Shown piece by piece: positions 2,059-43,800 of a stretch of 64,000 bases of DNA; position 1 is the first letter of the stretch; each line of letters starts with the position of its first letter. The stretch is from positions 51,770,001 to 51,834,000 of the forward strand of contig OX597827.1 in the NCBI GenBank assembly GCA_951406725.2. Reading direction: 5' to 3'. The notes under the pieces were generated by a model that was not told where the DNA came from, did not search any database, and saw only the letters and a list, made by a program, of their open reading frames with translations. Origin of the DNA: Octopus vulgaris (lineage: Eukaryota). Made by a program: the position numbers and the translations under genes.

Positions 2059-3807
2059 ATCTATGAAAATCCAGATAATGTCACTACAGAGAGGAGGAAC
2101 AGTGCAAAAGTGGAAAGTGATCTAGAATACACGAAGACTGTCCAGGAATCTCCTGAGTCTGACTCAGAGAATGTAACAAATTCTGTGAAGGAACATGAAT
2201 CAGATAAGAATTTCACTGATAAGCTTCAATCAAAACTTAACCGCAACAGTGCTAACATGAATGCAGCTGGTAAAAATAATAGTGCAATGCGACCAAAATC
2301 TATACCACCACCTCCTCCTAAATATCCAGATGCTATGGCTCCTAAGAAAAAGATTCCTACAAAAGTAACAAATGAGCCTGGAAAGAAATCGGTTAATCTT
2401 CCAAAACCACTGCTACACAATAATGTTCCTCCTTCTGGTGTTGAAACTGTAAAAGTGATGCCAAATGCAGCAAGTGAATCAAACTTTACTGATGAGCTTC
2501 AGTCTAAATTGACCAAATTAAAACCCCAACAACAGGTGTCTAAACCAGACTCTACAGCACCTGCCAGCAGTCAACCTCCAAAATATAATGTAAGGCAGTC
2601 AAGTCTTAAGAAATCACTCGTTCCAAAAGAGAAACCTACGCCAATGTCACCACCACAACCATCTTCATTATCATTGGCTAGTGCACTAAAACAGAAACAA
2701 AACAGCTCAAATAATTTTCAACATGACATTACTGAATCAAAAGGGAGAGAAACTGAGTCAAAAGAGAAAGATACTGCACGTTATAGTGGATCTAAACTTT
2801 CAGATAGGATTGCTAAATTTCAGAACCAGAGTGAAAACAAGGATGCAAACATAACCACAGGAAATAACCGAGGTCTGAATTTGTTGAAACGGCAACAGGA
2901 AAAATTTAAATTGGATGACCCTAATTTACAAGACAACAAAAATAAAACAGGTTTTTCTAGCTCAAAGCCAAGTCCTGCCATACCTCAGAAACCACCAGTA
3001 TTCAGCAAAGCTGCTCTGAAACCCACGGTTAAGAGTTCTCAAGAGAGTGTCCCTGCTAATGTGGGTCTTAAACCTAAAGTGTCATTCACAAAGCCAAAGT
3101 TAAATCAGAATGTTACTCAGAGTAATCCCCAAACAATTGCTTCAAAATATCCCCAGTTTCAAGCCCAGAAAACAGCACCTGTATCAAAACCAGCACAAGT
3201 TGGTCATAAGTCGACTCTTCAGCCACCATCCACTCCAACAAATAAACCTAATTGGAAAATTGCAGATAGTGCTGAAATAAAGTACCAGGCTTCTCATAGC
3301 TACCAGGCAGAAAATGCTGAAGAGATTAGCTTTGTCCGTGATGATTCCATTGAAGTGTTGGAGAAAGATGAGTCAGGTTGGTGGCTGGTGAGGGTTGGCA
3401 CAGAAAAAGGCTGGGCACCTTCAAATTACATTGAAGAAGTGAAACCAGTGACTAGCCGGAAGTTAAATCCTCCTAAGAAACCCCTTCCCAAACTAACACC
3501 AGGAAGCCCAGCCAAAAACACAACATTAGATTCCAGCAACAACAATAATTGTAATAATAACACTTCAACTCAATGCAGCGAGAATGACAGCAGCAAAAAG
3601 GATGGTAACAACAGAATCTTCAATGACTGCCTGTATATAGTCATGGAAGATTTCAGTGCTTTCAGTGACGAAGAGCTGTCAGTGGAGGAAGGAATGTATG
3701 TGAATGTAATAGATAATTCAAACAATGAATGGTGGTATGTTTCACTTCACACTGGTGAAGAAGGATGGGTTCCTGCAAACTGTATAAGCACTGTACATGA
3801 TGTCTGA
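2059..3807 (+). CDS. Terminal coding exon of a proline-rich adaptor/scaffold with two C-terminal SH3 domains (SH3PXD2/Tks-like or similar); upstream exons not identified in the window
   Basis: Polypyrimidine acceptor ttttctcttcttcag at 2044-2058 opens in phase 0 (IYENPDNV...) into the 565-aa ORF. It contains PxxP-rich stretches and two SH3 domains (YQASHSYQAENAEEISF...GWWLVR...GWAPSNYI; YIVMEDFSAFSDEELSV...WWYV...GWVPANCI). Stop TGA at 3805-3807. Confidence 0.88.
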   Translation: MYENPDNVTTERRNSAKVESDLEYTKTVQESPESDSENVTNSVKEHESDKNFTDKLQSKLNRNSANMNAAGKNNSAMRPKSIPPPPPKYPDAMAPKKKIPTKVTNEPGKKSVNLPKPLLHNNVPPSGVETVKVMPNAASESNFTDELQSKLTKLKPQQQVSKPDSTAPASSQPPKYNVRQSSLKKSLVPKEKPTPMSPPQPSSLSLASALKQKQNSSNNFQHDITESKGRETESKEKDTARYSGSKLSDRIAKFQNQSENKDANITTGNNRGLNLLKRQQEKFKLDDPNLQDNKNKTGFSSSKPSPAIPQKPPVFSKAALKPTVKSSQESVPANVGLKPKVSFTKPKLNQNVTQSNPQTIASKYPQFQAQKTAPVSKPAQVGHKSTLQPPSTPTNKPNWKIADSAEIKYQASHSYQAENAEEISFVRDDSIEVLEKDESGWWLVRVGTEKGWAPSNYIEEVKPVTSRKLNPPKKPLPKLTPGSPAKNTTLDSSNNNNCNNNTSTQCSENDSSKKDGNNRIFNDCLYIVMEDFSAFSDEELSVEEGMYVNVIDNSNNEWWYVSLHTGEEGWVPANCISTVHDV

Positions 3808-4529
3808 AGAAATATAATCTTTAGCATTATTGCACCTTGAATTTTAGCTTGTGACTTGGCACAAACAGTCAAATCAAACGAAACCTATGTATTTCATTTT
3901 ATTCTTTACTTTCTGAGTTAACTCTGACTTTGGGGTCAATAAAATAGCAGTAATATACTGAAGTCAAACTTACTGTACTTATACTCTATAAAAACTGGCT
4001 GTGTGAAAAGTGAGAAAAAAATTATGTTTTGAATATATTCTTTGTTTGGTTTATGCACAAGTTCTAGCCAGTGACATAAAGTGACCTATATCAGTTACAT
4101 GTTTAAAGTATATGGCCAGTTCTTATAAAGATTGTGCAGTAGTGTCATAATATTATTGTTTATCACTGTGGAAGAGTAAGTAAACTCCCAGTGATCCAAG
4201 TTATATTTTTCAGTTCTTTGATGTTAAGGTTATCATATGTATGTTTCAAAATTTGTCTCTTTACCATAAAGCTTTGTGGGATGTATGTAAAAAATGAGTA
4301 AAAATTAAATGAAAATAATGTAAAGTTAAAATTCACACACACACACACACACACATGTGTATGTCAACTTGTATTTTATGAGGCTGAAGATATTAAGTAG
4401 CACAGTTACTTGAGTTTCATCATTTGAATTATCAAATTGTAATGAAGTTTGAATTTTTTTATATATGGAGCTGGATAAAGGAATAAAGGAAGGAATTTGA
4501 GTATGATGCAGAGAAAATTGGGGGAAAGG

Positions 4530-6830
4530 GGAAAAGAGAGGGTGCATAGTAAGAAGAAAGCTGGTAAGAGAGTAATGATAGGCAAATTTGAAATATTGAA
4601 AGTAAAAATGATTAAAAATTAATAGTAAAAAGGTTATGTAAACTGGTAAGAGTTTAGATCTGATTATAGGAGTGAACTGGGGGTAAAATATATAGGATAA
4701 AAAAATAGAATAAAGTTTTGTTGGTATAAAATTTTAACTTGAGAAAAATTCTAATGAACAGAGAAAGGAAAATTACTATCTTTGATTAAATTTAATCATT
4801 GATTAAATTAATTTGATGTCAGGTTTTTATGTAAGCAAAGAAACACTGTCTTTGATTTACAGTTGAAGAGGGATTGCTTGGAGAATGGTATTTCTTGTGA
4901 TACAGTAATACGAAGTAGACACAACTTGTTACTGAGAAGGTTTGATAAAATATATTTTCCATTTTGATTTCAGAGTTGTTAGATTCAAGATTCTAAATGA
5001 ATTTGTGAAACTGTTATTTTTTTCAGTAGCACAGTGCGCCCACCCACCCCACCTATGACCTTTTAGAAGTACATTTACAATTGAGCAGGCAATCATTCGT
5101 GTGAATACAGTTATATGATTGGGAAGATTGGGTTAAGGAAGAATTATGAAATTTGATATTGTTAATACAATTTTATAAAATCAACTTAGACATCACTCTT
5201 GAACTTAATAACCTCCAGTTTTTTCTGTGTAAAAATCCATTGAATCTCTCCATTACATACATAAATTTTGTAACTACCCATGCAATATTTTGAATCATAC
5301 ACAGATATTTCTTTACACTTGTTTATCCTCTTTTCCAATGAATCTGCTTTCAGAGATGCTTCACCTTGTATATAATAAGGTGCACAAGCACAACTATTAT
5401 AATAAGGTGCACAAACACAAAACAGATTCACCAAAAATCTGTTAAAAACATCTCATTAACCCACAAAATACAACATGCATCACCAACTTCAATTCTCCAT
5501 ATAACCAACGAGTTTCTACACCTGTAGCTGATATCTTTGTGGAGCTCTTACAAAATATGTCCATATCACAGGAACCACTAACATTTCAAAATAAATTTCT
5601 GTAAAAGTTTCTTCAAAAAACTTTAACCTACACAAGTTTTCTCCAATGTGAAACATATGGAACTCAACTTATTCTTTCCAACTATGTAGTTGTATTCACT
5701 TGAATGATTGCCCACTCAACTGTCATTGTACTTCTGGAAGACTCTCTCTCTCTTTACTCTTTTACTTGTTTCAGTCATTTGACTGTGGCCATGCTGGAGC
5801 ACCACCTTTAGTCGAGCAAATCAGCCCCAAGACTTATTCTTTGTAAGCCTAGTACTTATTCTATCGGTTTCTTTTGCCGAACCGCTAAGTTACGGGGACA
5901 TGAACACACCAACATCGGTTGTCAAGCGATGTTGGGAGGACAAACACAGATACACAAACACACACATATATATATACATATATACGACAGGCTTCTTTCA
6001 GTTTCCGTCTACCAAATCCACTCACAAGGCTTTGGTCGGCCTGAGGCTATAGTAGAAGACACTTGCCCAAAGTGCCACGCAGTGGGACTGAACCCAAACC
6101 ATGTGGTTGGTAAGCAAGCTGCTTACAACACAGCCACTCCTGCGCCTATACAAGACTCCTGATTCTATTGTTAAAACTATCAAACTTTTAAATCATACAT
6201 TAAAGTAACATCAAGTTCTTTCAAAAGGCAATTTTACCAATATCCTTATAGCTTTCGCCACCAAATTAAATGTTTTTATTCCAATTTGTTTGAGTTCATT
6301 TAGAGCCTTTAACTTAATGACACATATTTTAAAATCAAGTGAAAAATAATGTTTTTCTATAAATCTTTTAATCTTTAAATTGTTTTAGCTTTAAGGCTGT
6401 GGACATGCTGAGGCACCATTTCCAACAAGCTGTCAATTTTGCAGTTCTGAATATCTAGAAATACTCTATCTCAACATCTCCTTTTTCAATTATAATTCAG
6501 CAGCAGTATCTGTAAACTTTCTTAGACATTCAAGATCAGTCAGATACTTTAAACTGTATTTTCAATCAAACCCACTAGATTTAGTCAATATGATCCACAT
6601 CCCTATCTATTCTCTTTACAATTTTTCTCAAACAGTAGCACAGTACCAACAAGGCTTATTCTAATTTTTATTTCATATCATTCAATTCATTCCTTAATTG
6701 CATAATCCTTTTCTCCTTTATCACTTTATGTACATTTTAATTCATTTTCCCACTATTGGTTACTCTCAATATTTCAAATTTGCTCATCGTAACTGATCTA
6801 TGTGCTTTGATCTTTGCTAACACCTCTTTT
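4530..6830 (+). mobile_element. Decayed Penelope-like element (RT end plus GIY-YIG) with an inverted partial copy on its 5' side; interrupted by a SINE
   Basis: Plus-strand remnants YIHKFCNYPCNIL (~5250-5290), LCSCIHLNDCPLNCHC (~5680-5730) and SFKRQFYQ..SFRHQ (~6216-6265). Segments ~4580-4605 and ~5065-5135 are diverged reverse complements of ~6760-6785 and ~5665-5735. Boundaries approximate. Confidence 0.6.
5750..6146 (-). mobile_element. Full-length CORE-type tRNA SINE (octopus OR-like)
   Basis: Reverse complement of ggcgcaggagtggctgtg...ggcac(c/t)ttgggcaagtgtcttctactatagcc...gactgaaacaagtaaaagag; near-identical to 61129-61592. Confidence 0.9.
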
Positions 6831-8030: not shown

Positions 8031-9034
8031 TTGGGTTGAGTCATAAATAATTTCCTTCCTTTGGAAGCAAATTGTAATGACACATTTCAAACTTCAGATG
8101 TTTAAAATTGCAATGGAAACTACCATTTTTAAAAGACCCTCATCTGTTATTCGTATGTAAGCAGGGAAATTGTGCACATCATTGTTTAATATGAACTGAA
8201 AGTGCATATTCAACATGTGATACTGTGAGTGTTTAAGAATGGAAAAAATTCCACAGAAATAGCTAAGAAAATATGCTGTGTTTATGGCCAAGGTGTCATT
8301 ACTGTCCAGCAAGTTCCCCATATTCTTAGTGAGAAGAATAGGGAAGATCACATGTCCATGGGGACAAGTCTTCTATCAAAGTATAAAAATGACCCATTTC
8401 TCAATAATACCATTACAGGTGATGGAAAATGGGTCTTTTATGACAATGTTCAATGCAAAAGGCAGTGGACTGATAAGAATAAATCTCTACAACTTATCTC
8501 AAAGGCTGAGCTCTATGGAAGGAAGGTTATGCTGTGTGTACGGTGGAATCACCGTTTTGAGTTTTTAAACTGCATTCAAACACTAAAGCTGGCATATGCT
8601 CCCAACAGCTGCAAAATGTGCATGAAAATCTTTTAAGAAAATACCCTGTACTCGTTAATAGTAGAAACATTGTATTTCTCCATGATAACACAAGACCACA
8701 TTCAGCAAGGATCACACAGGATAAAATATTGGTTTTAGGCTGGTGTGTTCTACTCCATCCACCATTTTCACTGGACCTTGCACCAACTGATTTCTATCTT
8801 CTGATGGAGAAACATTTTTCCTCAAGAAAATCAGGTGAAGACGTGTGTGGATAGCTTTTTCATGTTGAGGCCAGCTTAATTTTACATGAGAGGAATCAAA
8901 AAGCTATCTAAAAAATAGCAAGAGGTCGTTCAAAATAATGGCAATATACTGATAATTGAAAATAATTCTTTGTAAAATTTTTTCATGAGTAAAGGTATTT
9001 AACAAAATCAGAAATCATTTATGACTCAACCCAA
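8031..9034 (+). mobile_element. Mariner (Tc1/mariner) transposon, defective transposase
   Basis: TIRs ttgggttgagtcataaat / atttatgactcaacccaa flanked by TA. Broken ORFs carry TITGDGKWVFYDN, LHDNTRPH and HPPFSLDLAPTDF. Confidence 0.92.
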
Positions 9035-11612: not shown

Positions 11613-12764
11613 CACCTATTTTCTTAACTATTGTATGCATAGAAGCTGGATTTATGGCACCATTACTGTTAGAGGGTAATCTCTCTAGTCAACCAGTAAT
11701 AAACTTTTAGCAAAGTTCATCAGACAGCTGATCTCCAAAATGATTGACTTTTATGCTTGTAGACAGTTTGAAGATTTTAACTTTGGTCACAATTTTAAAA
11801 GCATGAATTTCATAAATTTTTATTTTCTGGGATATCTGGTAGAATCTGAAAACATACTCACTACTCTGCCATTTAAAATCTATTGTCATGCAAGTCCTCC
11901 AGAGTGCAGCCTAGGGCCCCAGAGCTTCCTCGTGTGCCATTGTGTATTCATACCATTCAATCATTTGTAAGCGCTTAAGAACTTGTTTGGCTTCCAAATT
12001 CTTGGCTATGTTGCAAGCAGGTGTGTCATTTTTACCAAAGTGCAAAGGGAGCTTGAAAGCAGAATGTAGTGTACAACTCCTAAGAAAGAATGTGATGACA
12101 ACAACTGAAGTAACAACTGCAATAGCTATTCTGTTATGTTGATGGACTTTGGCGAAACTGATCAGGAATGTCTGTCATGTTCCACCCTGAACATCAAGGA
12201 AGCAAATTCTAGGTACTTGCAAAAATACAAAAGCAGACTGCCTTCTGATTTACACAGAATTTGCATTTATCATCTTTCTCATATGGTAGTAATATGTCAA
12301 TGTTAATAACATTTGCTGTATGATGTCTCTTTTAAATTGCTGTTGCTAGATTATTGACTTTAGTAATGTAGTTAGATTAAGGAGGTTGTTTTCATGAAAA
12401 TCATTTTACATCCTTAAGCTTGTTGATGAGGGCTGCATTGTTGATTTTATCTATATATTCTATATCAATGCAAAGATACATCTGTTGAGCTTGATGCTTG
12501 AAATCTTCAAAAATAGAATTGTGACACTTGAGCCAGTACTGACACACATTGGATGCTTCACAGACTCTTTGTTGGATATACAGAAGCTTCTGACAATGTT
12601 GTGTCCAACTGCACATCATTCTTCAACAATTCAAATACATAGTGTGTAGTGGTGCAAATTTTGACATTGAAATGGACTGGAATTTTCCATTTAATGGAGA
12701 AAAAAATCAAAGAGAGCTTATTTATGTTGATTGACATATACAGTAGACTCTCTTCCAATGACAC

Positions 12765-14909: not shown

Positions 14910-15974
14910 ATATGTGTGTGTGTGAGAGAGAGAGTTGGAGTAGGAAGAAGGTAAAAATTATTTGATAAATGAAATGGTAAAGAAGAGAAGATAAAAAGGA
15001 AAAAATTAGACTGCTAGGTGAGAGAAAGAGAGAAAGGAAAGAAAATGAGTGAAAGTAGCGAAACTATCAACAAGGAGTAAGGAGTGAAGTAGAACAGTAA
15101 AGGAAATCAGTTACTATAGTAACTGACAGAGGAGGAGGAGGAAGAGGAGAAGGAGACAATAACAACAAACAAAAGAAAACTGGGAGACGATAAGGGTGGA
15201 TGTTATGGTTGGGTTTGCTCTCATACACACATTTTTGCACTATTTAGTTCCAATTGTGTTGTTTCTTTTTACACAAATGACAATTCACCTTCCTTTTCTC
15301 ATGAAATTAATAAAATTGAATATTTGACAAGGCTTTAGTGTTGATACAATTGACTAAAACCACTAATGATGATCCAGTATGACCATTGTCCATTGAGGAA
15401 TACTAGGAAATTAAAAGAATAGTGTCATTTTTTTGATAGCCAGTTATCCTTACACAACACAACTGGCATATTAAATGCTGTCCGTGCTAGTAAAACAGAA
15501 AGTAGGATATGATATAAACCTTCTAGAGAAACTTAAGCACAATTAGAAAATTTTACAATCCTCTTGAAATAAATATTATGAATGATGTGTATATGTGTGA
15601 CTAATACTAGAATTTGCAGATATATACTTTACTTTAATCCTTTCAAGATAAAATTGTATAAATGGCTGTTTGATAAGACAGAAATTTCTTAAATAAACTA
15701 CTATATACTAGAAGTCATTGCACTTCCATTACACAACCATTCTCTTATCTAAGACAAACAAAACTGAACCTTTGATATCATATCACATGTCTAATCTACT
15801 ATGTTTTAAAATACAAAGTTTATTTATTGTCACCCACTGTTATTTGAAAGAGAAATAGAAGCCAGCTGGTCAGTATATTAAATCTTACCAGTGTATTAAA
15901 TACCGGAGCATTATCAATGTAATAATTCTAAGAACAGCTTGAAATGAACATTTCTGTCAAAAAAATCTTAAAAA

Positions 15975-18143
15975 ATGTCATCAATAGATACAATGTTAAC
16001 TGAAATTTCTAATGGAAGTACATTTAACTGCAATAATACAAGTAGTGAGGATGTCATTTCTATTGCTTATAATTTTGCTTTTAATTCAGTAATATGGATT
16101 GTCTGTTTGATAATATTTTCAATCATACCAAAACTGATCCAAAACTATCGTCAAAACGAAGCTTCATGTATCAGTCCATCTTCTAATACTTTAACAGATT
16201 TATCATCTGTCAGTGAATTGCAGTTGAGTTGTGAATCAACAACAGCCGAGACTTCATTTCCAGAACATCTTCGTCAGACAGATCAATTCACTTCCTGGCT
16301 CCGAGTTTTCTGGCGACTCACCGACAAGGATATCACACAAAAATGTGGGCTAGATGCTATAGCTTATTTGCGCTTTCAAAGGTATTTGATTGGTTACCTT
16401 TTCTTCATATTATTTCTCACTCTTGTGATAATCTTACCTGTTAATTATACAGGAGGACAATTTACACCTAAGGATATTAGTAGTACAACAACAATTAATG
16501 TTCACTCCAATCTTCTTTGGCTACATGTCTCAGTTTCCCTTTTATATTTACTAGCAACCATATTCTTGCTGCTTCGTTTATCACAGCATTTATGGACAAG
16601 TAATAAATCAAATACCTTGCTGATAAGTAATATCCCTCAGGTTGAAAACAGCAAGAATTTGATTGAATTGCATTTGAACAGAGCATATCCAAATATAACT
16701 GTTAAGAAAATAGTAAATGTGTATGATACCAGAAAAATCTTGGAATTAGACCAAAAACTTCAAAAAATCCGTCATCTCAAAGAGCATTACCAAAATGTTG
16801 TAAACGCAGAAACCTATCAAGAATCTGACATCAAAGAAAATGTTGAGAGTACATGTTTTAGAAGTAATTATATAAACAACCTTGATGAAACAGAGGAAAC
16901 AATCTTATCGGAGAGAGCCATGGAAAGTGAGCAACTTAAAGAAAAATCACTGGGAATAGTATTTGTGAAATTAGCTTCAGTAGAAGAGGCAGAATATATA
17001 TATTCATCTTTTCATTCATTTTGCAAATGCAAACGTCCTGTCATCCCATCAGAATTTAGTGATGTACTAAAAGTCAAAAAGTGGCGAATGAGTTATGCTC
17101 CACGTAAGGAAGATATTATCTGGCAAAATTTGCCTACCTCACATTTTTCTAAATTTATTAGAAAAATAATAGTTGCAGCTATTTTGTTTTTTGCCTGTTT
17201 AGTTGTCACAAGTCCTGCTCTTGTTACATCTCTTTTTGAAAAAATTAACAAGACAAACTCTCCCTTCTTAGAAATTATACAAAGTCTTCTGCTTAAATTT
17301 ATGGTTAATCTACTACCAATGATTGTAACTGCTTCAATTGCCTTTCTAAGGAGTTGGACTAAAAGTTTAAAACAGAAAAAAACCATGATAGCTTTGTTTA
17401 CAACACTTTTATTTGCGGTTCTAATCTTACCATCACTGGGTCTGACAACATATGATTTTCTGTCCAAATCTGTGAATATACAATCAAAAATGCATTGTAT
17501 ATTCACAATGGGAAATAATTATTTGTTTGTGAACTATGTCATAGTTTCAGCACTCATTGGCACTGGTCTTGAACTTCTTCGAATTTCTGAATTACTAACG
17601 CTACTGTGGCGTTACTTGACAATCCGTTCAACCGTAAAGAGAAGGACATTAAGAGAATATGATACCATTGAATTTGATTTTGGTGAACAGTATGCATGGA
17701 TCCTCTGCCTGTTCTCTGTGGTCGTTACATACAGCATACTCTTCCCAATTATTTCAATATTTGGATGTCTCTACATCATTCTCAAATATTGCGTCGATCG
17801 TTACAACTTGTATTTTATTTACAGGAAGTCATATGTTCACAAAACCGTGCACTTGTCAGCAACAAACATAATGGTTTTAACGTCCATACTACCTCAATTC
17901 TGCATCTTGGAATTCACTCTCCTGGTAACTTCAGATAATCACTTGCCTCCACATGTATTTTACTACTCTTTAGCTGTATTTGTGCTCAGCTTGACTGTCT
18001 CTATATCCATCATTGTGTGGTTTTACTTTAAGCAACAGCAAGTCATCAGGTTTGTCAATCGTCTGACCAATGGATGTTGTTGTGTCAGTGAACCAAAACT
18101 AAACAGTACTAAATGCGACTATGGTTCAGTAAACAATTCTTGA
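15975..18143 (+). CDS. TMEM63: Intronless TMEM63/OSCA (CSC1-like) mechano/osmosensitive cation channel, 722 aa, divergent paralog
   Basis: Uninterrupted ORF with an in-frame TAA just upstream of the ATG. Family motifs occur in order: CGLDAIAYLRFQRYLIGYL, IILPVNYTG, LLWLH, TLLISNIP, GIVFVKL, WRMSYAPRKEDIIWQNL, LILPSLGLT, FVNYVIVSALIG, EFDFGEQYAW, KYCVDRYNLYFIY. About 11 hydrophobic segments. Confidence 0.93.
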   Translation: MSSIDTMLTEISNGSTFNCNNTSSEDVISIAYNFAFNSVIWIVCLIIFSIIPKLIQNYRQNEASCISPSSNTLTDLSSVSELQLSCESTTAETSFPEHLRQTDQFTSWLRVFWRLTDKDITQKCGLDAIAYLRFQRYLIGYLFFILFLTLVIILPVNYTGGQFTPKDISSTTTINVHSNLLWLHVSVSLLYLLATIFLLLRLSQHLWTSNKSNTLLISNIPQVENSKNLIELHLNRAYPNITVKKIVNVYDTRKILELDQKLQKIRHLKEHYQNVVNAETYQESDIKENVESTCFRSNYINNLDETEETILSERAMESEQLKEKSLGIVFVKLASVEEAEYIYSSFHSFCKCKRPVIPSEFSDVLKVKKWRMSYAPRKEDIIWQNLPTSHFSKFIRKIIVAAILFFACLVVTSPALVTSLFEKINKTNSPFLEIIQSLLLKFMVNLLPMIVTASIAFLRSWTKSLKQKKTMIALFTTLLFAVLILPSLGLTTYDFLSKSVNIQSKMHCIFTMGNNYLFVNYVIVSALIGTGLELLRISELLTLLWRYLTIRSTVKRRTLREYDTIEFDFGEQYAWILCLFSVVVTYSILFPIISIFGCLYIILKYCVDRYNLYFIYRKSYVHKTVHLSATNIMVLTSILPQFCILEFTLLVTSDNHLPPHVFYYSLAVFVLSLTVSISIIVWFYFKQQQVIRFVNRLTNGCCCVSEPKLNSTKCDYGSVNNS

Positions 18144-18550
18144 TAATGGATTAACTTTCATTCGGTGTGAGATTCTCTGTGTGTCATGGATGAGAATGTG
18201 TGTGTGTAACTTGTTTTAGTCAGTGTGGATACGAAATCGCATTCATACATATTTACATATATAATTTTGTTGGTTCCAGTCACTTAATTACAACCATAAT
18301 TAATCTGATACTCATTTCTCAAAATCTAAAGAATAGTTGCACAAACCGAGTTTAGAGAGTTATGTACCTTTAATGATATGAATGCCTGTGTGCGTGTGTG
18401 TGTGTGTGAGAGGGATCTATTTATCCATCTATCTGTCTGTCTGTCCACTCACTTGGCTTTCTCTCTGCTTGACTTCCTGCCAGCCTGTCTGTAAACGTAC
18501 ACACACACATACACACACACGTACACACACACACACGTGTTCAAGCCAAA

Positions 18551-18651: not shown

Positions 18652-18736
18652 ATGGAGTTTCTCCTGATACCTTTTCTACATATCAAGCCCCACTTCCCCC
18701 AAAGTTTCAAGCCATGTGCCTGTAGTAAAAAAAAAT

Positions 18737-18949: not shown

Positions 18950-20356
18950 AAAGTTTTGAATGGTACAACAATGCACTATGATACAGACAATGGGCTATAT
19001 ACCTGTTGTAATTTAGACATCCATAGTCTGATATGATATTTTGGAATAATATTCCTTCTTCAGATATTCTTAGATGGAGTCGCTGCTATAATCGGTTTTC
19101 TAACGACTTTTCTTTTTTATGTTTTTGGAAGTGTCTCAGCAGTGGTCTCACGATGCTACTTCCAGAACTCCTCAAGAGAAGTGTGTGAAGTTGGCCATGT
19201 CTCAATCTCGTGCGGGCTGGTACATCCGTAGCGCTGCTTCTGAGATATGTATTTATACGTGCAGCCTCCTTTTTTTTTTTAAGTACCCAAAACGACCAAC
19301 ATGCTGAACACATAGAAAACCCAGCAATACATGCTTCCTTTAAAATACTCCATTTTAGCAAGAGGATAACTACATCCATCCGAAGAGCCATAAGAAGAGA
19401 AGGGCTAGATGTACAACAAGCCCACTCTGGCCCCTCTCTGAGAGGACACCTCACTAAGAAACGAACAAGGAACAACAATCAATGTACACTAACAAACTGT
19501 CCCATCCATGACACAGATTTATGCCAACGGGTAAATGTTGTGTATAGAATACAATGTAACAAATGCAACAAGTTCTATGTGGATAGCACAACAAGACCGT
19601 TACACATCCACATCAAAGAACATCTGCACATGAGAACTTCCTCCTTCAGAAAACATCTAGACAGATGCCGGAACACCGACAAAAGCATAACAATCTTAAT
19701 TGAGGCCAATGAAAGAAATTTGAGATGTACTTGCATAGCAAGTGATTTGATCTGAGATCGTGTGCTGAAACGAAAACAATTGCAGCGTGGAAGGTGTTTG
19801 TAAGCCATTTAAGAAACACACAAAAGCCATTCGAAGTGAAAGAAATTTGAGTAATTTAAGGAAGCTATACTCATACACAGACTAGGGCCCCAAATTAACA
19901 ACAGGCTAGAGGTTGGTAATCAATACATTATTTAGCTACATCTGGATGCGTGTAAGTTCATTTTTGATAATATGCTCATCTGTAGTTTATAACAAAAAAA
20001 AAAAGAAGAGAAGAGAGAAAAAAGAAGGGGAAAAAGGAAGCTGCATGTATAATAGGTACCTCAGAAGCAGCGTTACAGATGTACCAGCACACACGAGATT
20101 GAGAAATGGCTGACTTCACACACTTTGTCATGAGAAATTCCAGAAGGAGCATCGTGAGACCACTGCTGAGATGCTTCCAAAAAATAAAAAAGAAAAGTCA
20201 TTAGAAAACCGATTATAGCAGCGACTCCATCTGAGTATATCTGAAGAAGGAATATTATTCCGAAATATCGTATCAGACTATGGAAGACTAAATTACAACA
20301 GGTATATAGCCCATTGTCTGTATCATAATGCATTGTTGTACCATTCAAAACTTTTT
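18950..20356 (+). mobile_element. 5'-truncated Penelope-like element: GIY-YIG endonuclease remnant between inverted pseudo-LTRs
   Basis: ORF 19210-19755 contains CPIHDTDLCQRVNVVYRIQCNKCNKFYVDSTTRPLHIHIKEH. Segment ~18950-19265 is the reverse complement of ~20040-20356. (ATT)n tracts lie on both flanks. Confidence 0.88.
20226..20284 (+). ncRNA. Type I hammerhead ribozyme motif in the Penelope 3' pseudo-LTR
   Basis: CTGAAGA (20241-47), extra A, helix II GGAAT/ATTCC, GAAA (20262-65), helix III ATA-tcg-TAT, cleavage triplet AUC (C20274). Helix I is imperfect (tccat/atgga distal). The inverted copy near 19020-19075 has GAAA mutated to AAAA. Confidence 0.65.
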
Positions 20357-29451: not shown

Positions 29452-30967
29452 GTATTTACAGTGAAATTTATTCACTGGTCACCGTAATTAGAAATATTGA
29501 ATTTCTAAATGTCTCAACGAGACATTTCACTTTAAGTTCAATGGCTATTGCTTTCACTATAAGTTTTCAATCGCTTTTACAAACAACAACAACAACAAAT
29601 TAATGACAAAAAGAAGTTCACAATTACTGATGAAAGTAATTTCATACATAATTTACTGACAGAAGTAACTTCATAAATTTCACTTCAATCTGTACACTTC
29701 GTTAAATTTGGCCACAAATTTCTTATTTATTTTTTGCAAGGTTTTTTTTTTGACGGAATTACTGATAAAGGTAATTCATAATTTACTGACAGAAGTAACT
29801 TAAAAAATGTCACTTAAATACGTACACTTAGTTAATTTCCCTAAAAACGTCTTATTTACTTTTGCAACGGATTTGTGTTTTCCTGTTGTTAACGGCATTT
29901 TTCTCGTTCCTTCGATACTGGCTCTTTGGTTCACTGACAAATTTCACTTCAACCAGAACAATTCTTTATTTTCCTTAAAAATTTCTTATTTACTTTCTTC
30001 CCGGTCATATTAAGAAATATAATTTCCGTTACCCAGTTATTTTCACTGTTTACTATCTTCTGCACCCGTGTATTTCTGTATACGCATATAACCATGCCCA
30101 GAAGGAAAGTGTCAAATTTGTCTACAATGTCAAGGTCAGCCAAAAGAATATCTCTGTCCAGGGAAAGGGAGATAGCTACAGAAACGGAAGCATACCAAGA
30201 AACGAACAGGCTATGCACTACAAAAAGCCAGTGCATCTCAAAGTGATGAACAGTGGTATGCACGGCTGACAAGGAATAGGATCTCCACTGCAGAACGAAG
30301 AGCAGTTGCAAAAGCTCAGAGAAGCAACTTCTATGAAGCAGCTTTCCATTATGATCCAGCAGTTCATTATACAGACGACACTAGAGTTTCCATTGGTGCA
30401 ACGACAACTGAGTGCATACATTGTAAAGCCTGGAGAGACACCTGCACTGTACTGCAGTGATGGAAAGGTTAAACTCCCTGCAATCTGCCAACCTCCAGAG
30501 CCATTGAAGAAACTGTTGTCATCAACTGACCAAGATTCCAAGCACTTCCAAAACAAAATTAGACAATACAATGCTGCACTACAGATGACATCATTTGGAG
30601 TCACAAGAGATTCAATTGAGCCAGGATTCATGCAAACTTTCAAGAGCCAAGATCAAATTTATCATCGGATTGGCTCTCTACTACTCTGTCAAATGAATCA
30701 TCAAAATCGGCCTTTCATTGTTTTTAACCTGTACTTGTTTTTTGGTTACGAAATAAGCTACACAAAACTTGCTTTTGAATTATGTGTATTTACTTTTTTT
30801 TAACATTTCACTTAACGTCTATATTCAATGCTGGCATAGGTTGGAAAGTTATTAATGTAGAAAGTTGGCATCTCAGCTACTAGCAGTTGAGACTTGCGTA
30901 ATCTAGACGGTAATTTTTAAATATCATTATTCTCTTTAACCCGGGAAACGCCGGGTATTTCTGCTAG
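29452..30967 (+). mobile_element. Internally deleted Helitron (N-terminal Rep region joined to an intact 3' end)
   Basis: ORF 30306-30803 has YCSDGKVKLPAICQPPEPLKKLL...SKHFQNKIRQYNAALQMTSFG...QIYHRIGSLL. The 3' hairpin acccggg-aaacg-ccgggt is followed by CTAG (30964-67) then T. The 5' boundary is uncertain. Confidence 0.85.
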
Positions 30968-42599: not shown

Positions 42600-43800
42600 A
42601 ATAACAGGTATGGTTTCTATTTAGAGGAGCAGAGTTTTGCCAGCATGTCTTCATGCTTGCACGAAGTTGGTCCTGATGTTGGAGTCGACTTTGCTCGAAT
42701 CTTTGAACTCAAATCTTTTAGGAGAAGCACGACTGGCACCAGGTCCTGCGTTCTGATGTTTTGTTTTCTCACGAAGAAAAGAGAATGTTCAAATTGTCTT
42801 TTAGCTTGTCTTTGAAGCGTAAGAGAGACCTTGCAACTGACATTCCTGTTGGCAATTGGCCAAAGAGAAGTTGATTTGGAATTCTGATATCACTCATACG
42901 TGAGAGATGACCTGACCATCTAAGCTGTATTTTGATGAGGATGGCCTTAATACTTGATATGTTGCATTTTGTTATCACCGTACTGTTACGAATGTGGTCA
43001 CTCGGTTTTATGTTGGATATAGTACGCAAGCATTGCATATGAAAAGCATCAAGCTGGTTGATATGTTTTCGGTACAGAGTCCAAGATTTAGCACCATATA
43101 GCAATGATGTCAAAACCAGTGACTTATATACATCGACTTTCACCTCAAACGATACGTCGTGGCTGTAAAGCTTACCGAAAGTGAAACAAGCCTTCTCGAT
43201 TATGGACTCAATTTCTTTACCCATCTTAGCATCATTAGACACAATGTAACCAAAGATGAGAGAGGGAGGAAACAGTAGAGGCAACATATATAGCAGAGGC
43301 AACAGTGGGAGGATGGTTATGGATAGCTTAGTTTTCTTGATGCTGATGGTCAGACCAAAAGCCTTCAATGCATGCGAGTTGTTTAGAATCCATTGCATGT
43401 CCTCAAGTATATATGCTACAAGTGCACAGTTGTCTGTGAAGAGTAAATCTGGAACTGTTTGTACCAAAGTCTTAGTTTTTGATTTGAAGCGCTGTTGGTT
43501 GAACATGCTACCATCGGTTTTGTGTTCAAACTTTTCTCCTTCTTTAACACTCTCGGACGCTGTTTCCAACATGGCGGAGAAATACAAAGCAAATAAGAGC
43601 TGTGCAAGAACACAGTCTTGTTTTGTCCCATTTGAGACTGTGAGTGAATTGGACACTTCCCTGCTAGATCTAACAGAAGCCATCATGCCCTGATGGAAAG
43701 AAATGATGACATTTCGGAAACACCTAGCTTTCTAAAGACAATCCAAAGACCATCCCTTGAAACGGTGTCGAAAGCTTTAGTTAGATCTATAAAAGTTCAG
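42600..43800 (-). mobile_element. RTE (BovB-like) LINE RT and 3' region
   Basis: ORF 42769-43686 has NGTKQDCVLAQLLF, DLLFTDNCAL, FGLTISIKKT, LLYGAKSWTLYRKH and LRWSGHLSRMSDIRIPNQLLFGQL; upstream FIDLTKAFDTV. Confidence 0.9.

Follow-up and report, generated by a model that had tools for sequence, protein, structure and literature searches.

The best solved relatives of the octopus gene described here, by both sequence and fold, are the mammalian TMEM63A, TMEM63B, and TMEM63C proteins (8ehw, 8ehx, 8wg4, and 8k0b). Plant OSCA1.1 and OSCA1.2 have the same fold, but they are far more distant in sequence (E value of ~1e-14), and the plant channels are dimers. According to PMC10319725, W473 of TMEM63A holds the plug lipid, and Arabidopsis OSCA1.1 has K436 at this position. 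In TMEM63B, the hook-1 cysteines are needed for scrambling (PMC11753361), and scrambling is kept off by Leu776 of the AQVLQD motif, a residue that docks on the IL2 beam (PMC13332465). Many invertebrates carry one TMEM63, and the coupling between conduction and scrambling is described as unresolved in PMC13494684.

Within cephalopods, the canonical TMEM63 is the likely parent of the copy and carries the same three domains in the same order. It differs in being alternatively spliced, located on another chromosome, and slow evolving, and it keeps the hook-1 cysteines, the TM4 tryptophan, the FFVNY gate, and the FVAxVL tail, all places where the copy has changed. Octopus chemotactile receptors are diverged, intron-poor ion-channel paralogs of the Cys-loop family, which are tandem expanded and have been shown in sucker cells. 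The copy belongs to a different family and is single in the stretch analyzed, and the parallel is an analogy only. Retrogenes as a kind of event and TMEM63 duplicates in other molluscs (Mya and Babylonia) are already known; the novelty lies in a TMEM63 paralog that has been kept for long, evolves fast, and has a systematically altered gate.

In the window, that is, the whole 64-kb stretch of Octopus vulgaris DNA analyzed, positions 15975 to 18143 of the forward strand hold one intact open reading frame (ORF) of 722 codons, encoding a 722-residue TMEM63/OSCA family member. The ATG at 15975 comes directly after an in-frame TAA, the TGA lies at 18141 to 18143, and 722 stop-free codons have a chance probability of ~4e-23 given the base make-up of the window. 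Three Pfam domains were identified in order on the forward strand, each above its gathering cut-off: RSN1_TM (residues 33 to 201, TM0 to TM2; 16071 to 16577), PHM7_cyt, or IL2 beam (residues 213 to 385; 16611 to 17129; also seen in the AlphaFold model), and the RSN1_7TM pore domain (residues 417 to 641; 17223 to 17897). The AlphaFold model (mean pLDDT of 82 and pTM of 0.85, from an alignment of 81 sequences) has the eleven-helix TMEM63 fold with the IL2 beam; hydropathy analysis gave 10 peaks above 1.6, and the eleventh helix is visible in the model. Its best structural match is mouse TMEM63B (8wg4; TM-score of 0.73/0.77), with TMEM63B, TMEM63A, and TMEM63C ranking above plant OSCA. By sequence, human and mouse TMEM63B are the nearest of the solved structures (E value of 3e-95), and in trees the protein groups among animal TMEM63. 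No further TMEM63 piece was found in the 64-kb window. These results bear out the preliminary description of an intact frame with the whole multi-TM architecture, and its wording "highly divergent" was correct, the protein being 34% identical to the octopus canonical paralog (34 to 35% across the cephalopod canonical proteins). A TATA-like heptamer, 318 bases 5' of the ATG (15657 to 15663, forward strand), is a candidate by pattern match.

For transcription, 24 sequencing runs, none with an RNA record, were compared with the stretch, and 20 of them contain it or part of it. Words of the transcript were present at 0.45 to 0.77, i.e., about half or more, in 13 runs that are probably RNA and come from four studies. 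Four runs (X1, X5, X9, and X21) were placed on the window as contigs, and RNA status was judged from a spliced neighboring SH3-domain gene and from uncovered intergenic bins. The contig of this neighbor enters the window at 2057 in both X1 and X5, with 1,932 and 1,168 upstream letters, respectively, that come from elsewhere, indicating that these two runs are spliced RNA. Over the copy, X5 provides one gap-free contig across 15877 to 18377, and X9 contigs span 16022 to 18377, with most intergenic bins empty. X1 covers 15850 to 18377 in four pieces, except for 17315 to 17338, at a depth close to the X1 background. The coding region of the TMEM63 copy is transcribed unspliced in three studies, so that the ORF, the Pfam domains, and the RNA contigs define a single-exon coding sequence for a divergent TMEM63 paralog, hereafter clade B. 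The gene is thus intronless in its coding region, as had been proposed, and the lack of expression that had been entertained does not apply. The transcribed 5' leader is collinear with the genome over at least 15850 to 15974 (forward strand; X1 contig from 15850 and X5 contig from 15877), and there may be an upstream noncoding exon, since contigs cannot mark the transcript start. The 3' untranslated region occupies 18144 to 18377 (forward strand; X1, X9, and X5 contigs), and record lengths suggest that it extends through masked microsatellites to ~18680 to 18720. In X21, from the same study as X9, the SH3 exon is covered and the TMEM63 ORF is uncovered, and several runs have almost no ORF words; this is compatible with restricted expression, yet it is not evidence of it.

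A homolog search with the window protein returned 18 proteins. Four are orthologs, from Octopus sinensis (99% identity), Octopus bimaculoides (89%), a Logan protein (82%), and Argonauta hians (57 to 58%), and the other 14 have 28 to 34% identity. Of the 1.84 billion representatives searched, a single one gave a full-length match above ~37%. The frame is unbroken in five octopod sequences. The orthologs are already in databases (XP_029644775.1 in O. sinensis, XP_014790226.1 in O. bimaculoides, and GAB1603921.1 in Argonauta) as "CSC1-like protein 2," the same automatic name as that of the parent. A literature search, with subscription journals largely outside it, found no work on cephalopod TMEM63 and no paper naming these three accessions, and the few supplementary files covered from PMC8976471, PMC9712504, and PMC9068888 gave no match. 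As for the window protein itself, its exact sequence had no entry in the protein collection searched, and no protein named from O. vulgaris matched the copy, though the parent is annotated there; the copy may be absent from that annotation. Four residues differ between the window and O. sinensis proteins, and X5 has exactly those alleles, which puts the window within the Octopus vulgaris group. At 16351, the window encodes Leu126, a position occupied by Pro in the remaining Octopus orthologs and by Ser in Argonauta; X1 carries the window allele and X5 and X9 the Pro allele.

With a Sepia TMEM63 query, the canonical octopod TMEM63 was recovered, annotated in O. sinensis (XP_029637641.1), O. vulgaris (CAI9723836-39), O. 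bimaculoides, and Argonauta (GAB1599964.1); the Sepia pharaonis protein is CAE1276222.1. Its isoforms differ by in-frame cassettes of 12 and 13 residues, as expected of a gene with introns; its exons are deduced from these isoforms rather than from DNA. The canonical paralog and the copy lie on different chromosomes or scaffolds in O. sinensis (120.5 versus 68.4 Mb), O. bimaculoides (117.1 versus 60.6 Mb), and Argonauta (38.2 versus 30.7 Mb). Hence, the copy is not the only TMEM63 in the genome, and the presence of a spliced paralog on another chromosome or scaffold in three species supports the retroposed duplicate postulated in the preliminary description. Taken alone, an origin by retroposition is highly probable. 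Inspection of the sequence by eye revealed neither a poly-A remnant nor a target-site duplication, and survival of such marks is not expected at this age. The cassettes occur at the same two places in Octopus and Sepia (P0399/P0304/P0397 and P0252/P0251/P0254). One of them is just 3' of the WDYGR motif, a place at which an alternative exon also occurs in vertebrate TMEM63B. In clade B, the cassette loop is 48 and 43 residues long, versus 44 (skipped) or 56 to 57 (included) in the parent, which is uninformative as to the cassette-exon status of the copy.

A third group of sequences, clade C (P0010, P0021, P0028, P0029, and P0030), shows 44 to 47% identity with cephalopod TMEM63 and 42% with that of abalone. 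The completed mixture-model tree, built from 20 rows, had ((B,C),(octopod A, decapodiform A)) as its best topology; support was 98/95 for B+C and 92/93 for all cephalopod-type rows. This topology was also favored in AU tests of 14 topologies under both LG and PMSF, and independent origins, from octopod A and from decapodiform A, were rejected (p < 0.001). Under PMSF, a position of B+C outside the cephalopods was retained (p of 0.08 to 0.10), as was a successive branching of B and C (p of 0.10 to 0.24), and B as sister to octopod A was borderline (p of 0.052 and 0.010). Loop lengths agree with the grouping at four places. The loop N175-W182 has 8 residues in all eight B and C rows versus 9 to 13 in 73/73 canonical rows; P414-P448 has 35 to 37 versus at least 39, P486-C508 has 22 to 23 versus at least 26, and F647-F662 has 16 to 18 versus 11 to 15 in 69/72 canonical rows. 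No joint shift in length was found in three other loops. Because only three substitutions are common to and fixed in B and C, the grouping leans on the tree and the loop lengths, and long-branch attraction is a possible cause of it.

P0028 and P0030 are two full-length clade C gene calls on one 652-kb ENA contig, whereas calls from the same source in canonical mollusc clusters are exon-sized pieces of 49 to 51 residues, suggesting that clade C, too, probably has no introns. In P0030, the end branch is long, IL2 contains a repeat insertion, and TM3 to TM5 are altered, so that gate-region divergence following duplication is seen a second time. From its place in the tree, our guess is that clade C is decapodiform, in which case the duplication would probably be older than the octopus-squid split, dated to 285 to 340 million years in PMC10925132. 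Proteins of B or C type that carry the name of a bivalve, gastropod, or annelid appeared neither in three homolog searches nor among the top 150 of 1.84 billion representatives. The recent origin offered earlier as one explanation of the intact frame is excluded, the Argonauta ortholog having diverged by 42%. The label "lineage specific" holds for octopods, but the probable sister clade C suggests a wider and older subfamily.

Next, we examined how the copy has changed, taking as conserved those alignment columns with at least 90% agreement in 73 canonical sequences. The Octopus and Argonauta copies agree in 111/135 conserved, 163/280 intermediate, and 133/286 variable columns (conserved versus variable, Fisher p of 1e-12). 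At the protein level, this agreement supports purifying selection on a TMEM63-like protein, in line with the preliminary description. Nevertheless, the copy evolves at ~9 times the rate of the parent between Octopus and Argonauta (0.78 versus 0.085 changes per site; identities of 58% and 91%), which also fits relaxed constraint. The coding differences in X5 (four nonsynonymous and three synonymous) are not distinguishable from neutral (p of ~0.2) and are too few for a test. In all four clade B sequences, 39 conserved columns are altered, 21 of them to a single residue common to the four. The alterations are concentrated in TM0 and TM3 to TM6a (27/55, versus 12/80 elsewhere; p of 3e-5) and also in TM3 to TM6a alone (17/42; p of 0.003), both regions having been picked after viewing the changes.

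Residues of the gate and plug were mapped by alignment to human TMEM63A numbering, with roles from PMC10319725. Four of the six pore and plug residues are kept (F556, Y559, E571, and W613), while F555 is replaced by Leu and W473 by Lys. The W473 site of the lipid plug corresponds to K441 (17295 to 17297, forward strand); it is Lys in 4/4 clade B sequences, compared to Trp in 67/73 and Leu in 6/73 canonical rows. The Lys, as in plant OSCA1.1 (K436; PMC10319725), would be most simply read as convergent. The hydrophobic gate L517-F518-x-x-Y521 (17523 to 17537, forward strand) aligns with F555, F556, and Y559, and its first Phe is Leu in 4/4 clade B sequences and Phe in 71/73 canonical rows. A PDB title describes the F516A mutant of OSCA1.1 as open, and F516 corresponds to F555 as read from the numbering in PMC10319725. 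E533, equivalent to E571 (17571 to 17573, forward strand), is kept in three of four clade B sequences and is Gln in one ortholog. Within RSN1_TM, the surroundings of TM0 (G-I-P and R..AWDYGRxAL) are largely replaced, with 10/13 conserved columns altered.

We also observed changes in two elements that both touch the IL2 beam. The hook-1 loop, as defined in PMC11753361, is shortened (residues 283 to 300; 16821 to 16874, forward strand, by alignment) and contains one cysteine. Clade B has 0 to 3 hook-1 cysteines (3 in Argonauta), compared to 6 to 7 in three cephalopod canonical proteins and a median of 5 in the 73 canonical sequences. The short C-terminal tail (18042 to 18140, forward strand) is devoid of the [FY]V[AP]xVL motif, which by motif count is present in 0/4 clade B, 61/73 canonical, and 4/4 clade C rows; by pattern likeness, this mollusc motif may correspond to AQVLQD of TMEM63B. 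Relative to mammalian TMEM63, C126 of TMEM63B, four of the five hook-1 cysteines, and the tail motif are absent from the copy, and the extracellular loops are shorter.

Judging from the sequence, we give about an even chance to the full reading that this gene is a transcribed octopod retrocopy encoding a predicted tension-gated TMEM63-type cation channel with a re-tuned gate. Under this reading, a processed mRNA of a spliced cephalopod TMEM63 would have been inserted, probably before the octopus-squid split, and the protein is predicted to act as a monomeric cation channel gated by bilayer tension. The TM6b to TM8 core would be retained, with the hook-1 cysteines and the beam-docking tail motif largely lost, and because of these losses the copy may be uncoupled from palmitoyl-hook and tail control of the TMEM63B type. 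The plug Lys and the gate Leu might change the ease with which tension opens the pore, and the remodeled gate helices fit a changed function. A role in touch or osmosensing, as first suggested, is a conjecture. It is distinctly unlikely, in our judgment, that a single pre-split retroposition founded a second coleoid TMEM63 subfamily that octopods rebuilt as a mechanoreceptor of arm, sucker, or statocyst, with an OSCA-like Lys and free of the hook and tail control found in other animal TMEM63s.

With the same origin, the protein could instead be mainly a lipid scramblase or a nonconducting membrane-remodeling factor, for instance, in germ cells or secretory tissue. Retrogenes are often testis biased and fast evolving, which would suit this alternative. 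TMEM63B scrambles through TM3 to TM6 and does so constitutively once the tail Leu776 is removed (PMC13332465); clade B has no such tail motif, and its groove-lining helices are altered. However, the hook-1 cysteines that scrambling by TMEM63B requires (PMC11753361) are mostly lost in the copy, and a transcript found across the probable RNA runs of four studies, with tissues given as codes, does not suggest a single rare tissue. On balance, we consider a scramblase unlikely. We judge the same of a redundant duplicate that, under relaxed constraint and having gained no new function, performs a subset of the housekeeping of the parent (osmotic or lysosomal tension sensing). The high rate throughout clade B, the shortened loops, the X5 differences described above, and the duplicates of Mya and Babylonia all fit such a duplicate; nonetheless, change is clustered in the gate helices rather than even, clade B as a whole has fixed many of the new residues, and the frame has stayed intact among the octopods. 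Finally, the gene may not be a retrocopy at all but an older DNA-level duplicate that later lost its introns or an ancient paralog lost from other molluscs, a scenario we rate as very improbable. The retention of B+C outside the cephalopods under the mixture model is in its favor, as is the lack of any identified insertion hallmark, but the best trees join B+C to cephalopod TMEM63, and the homolog searches and top representatives mentioned above included no counterpart named from bivalves, gastropods, or annelids. Moreover, total loss of coding introns together with a different chromosome is most simply obtained by one retroposition.

Whichever activity the copy has, octopods have long retained a second TMEM63 altered at elements that mammalian work links to gating and lipid scrambling. 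The parent and copy of one animal form a natural experiment, in which the question is whether hook-1 cysteines, tail motif, and plug Trp separate conduction from scrambling. Should sensory cells turn out to contain the copy, cephalopod touch or balance would gain a new candidate.

The remaining window contains the last exon of the SH3-domain gene, microsatellites, and transposon fragments. The exon (2059 to 3807, forward strand) is a 1.75-kb last coding exon, proline rich and carrying a pair of SH3 domains (NCF1/Tks5- or myosin-I-like); it is spliced upstream at 2057 and transcribed, ends 3' at ~4300 to 4900, and could serve as a synteny marker. Direct comparison gave no relation between this exon and the channel gene. 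The neighboring transposon frames are decayed, as noted earlier: only fragments were found, and 2 of 132 short ORFs scanned (of 207 listed) match Pfam, a piece of a mariner-type transposase and a piece of a PIF1 helicase. The decayed pieces lie at 8229 to 8851, 11914 to 12174, 19189 to 19755, 30270 to 30803, and 42769 to 43731; apart from the two identified by Pfam, the other three, which are without a Pfam match, resemble, as judged by eye, fragments of GIY-YIG, Helitron, and LINE reverse-transcriptase type. At 6768 to 6786, one low-depth X1 contig shows five A>G differences in 19 bases, a pattern resembling clustered A-to-I editing.
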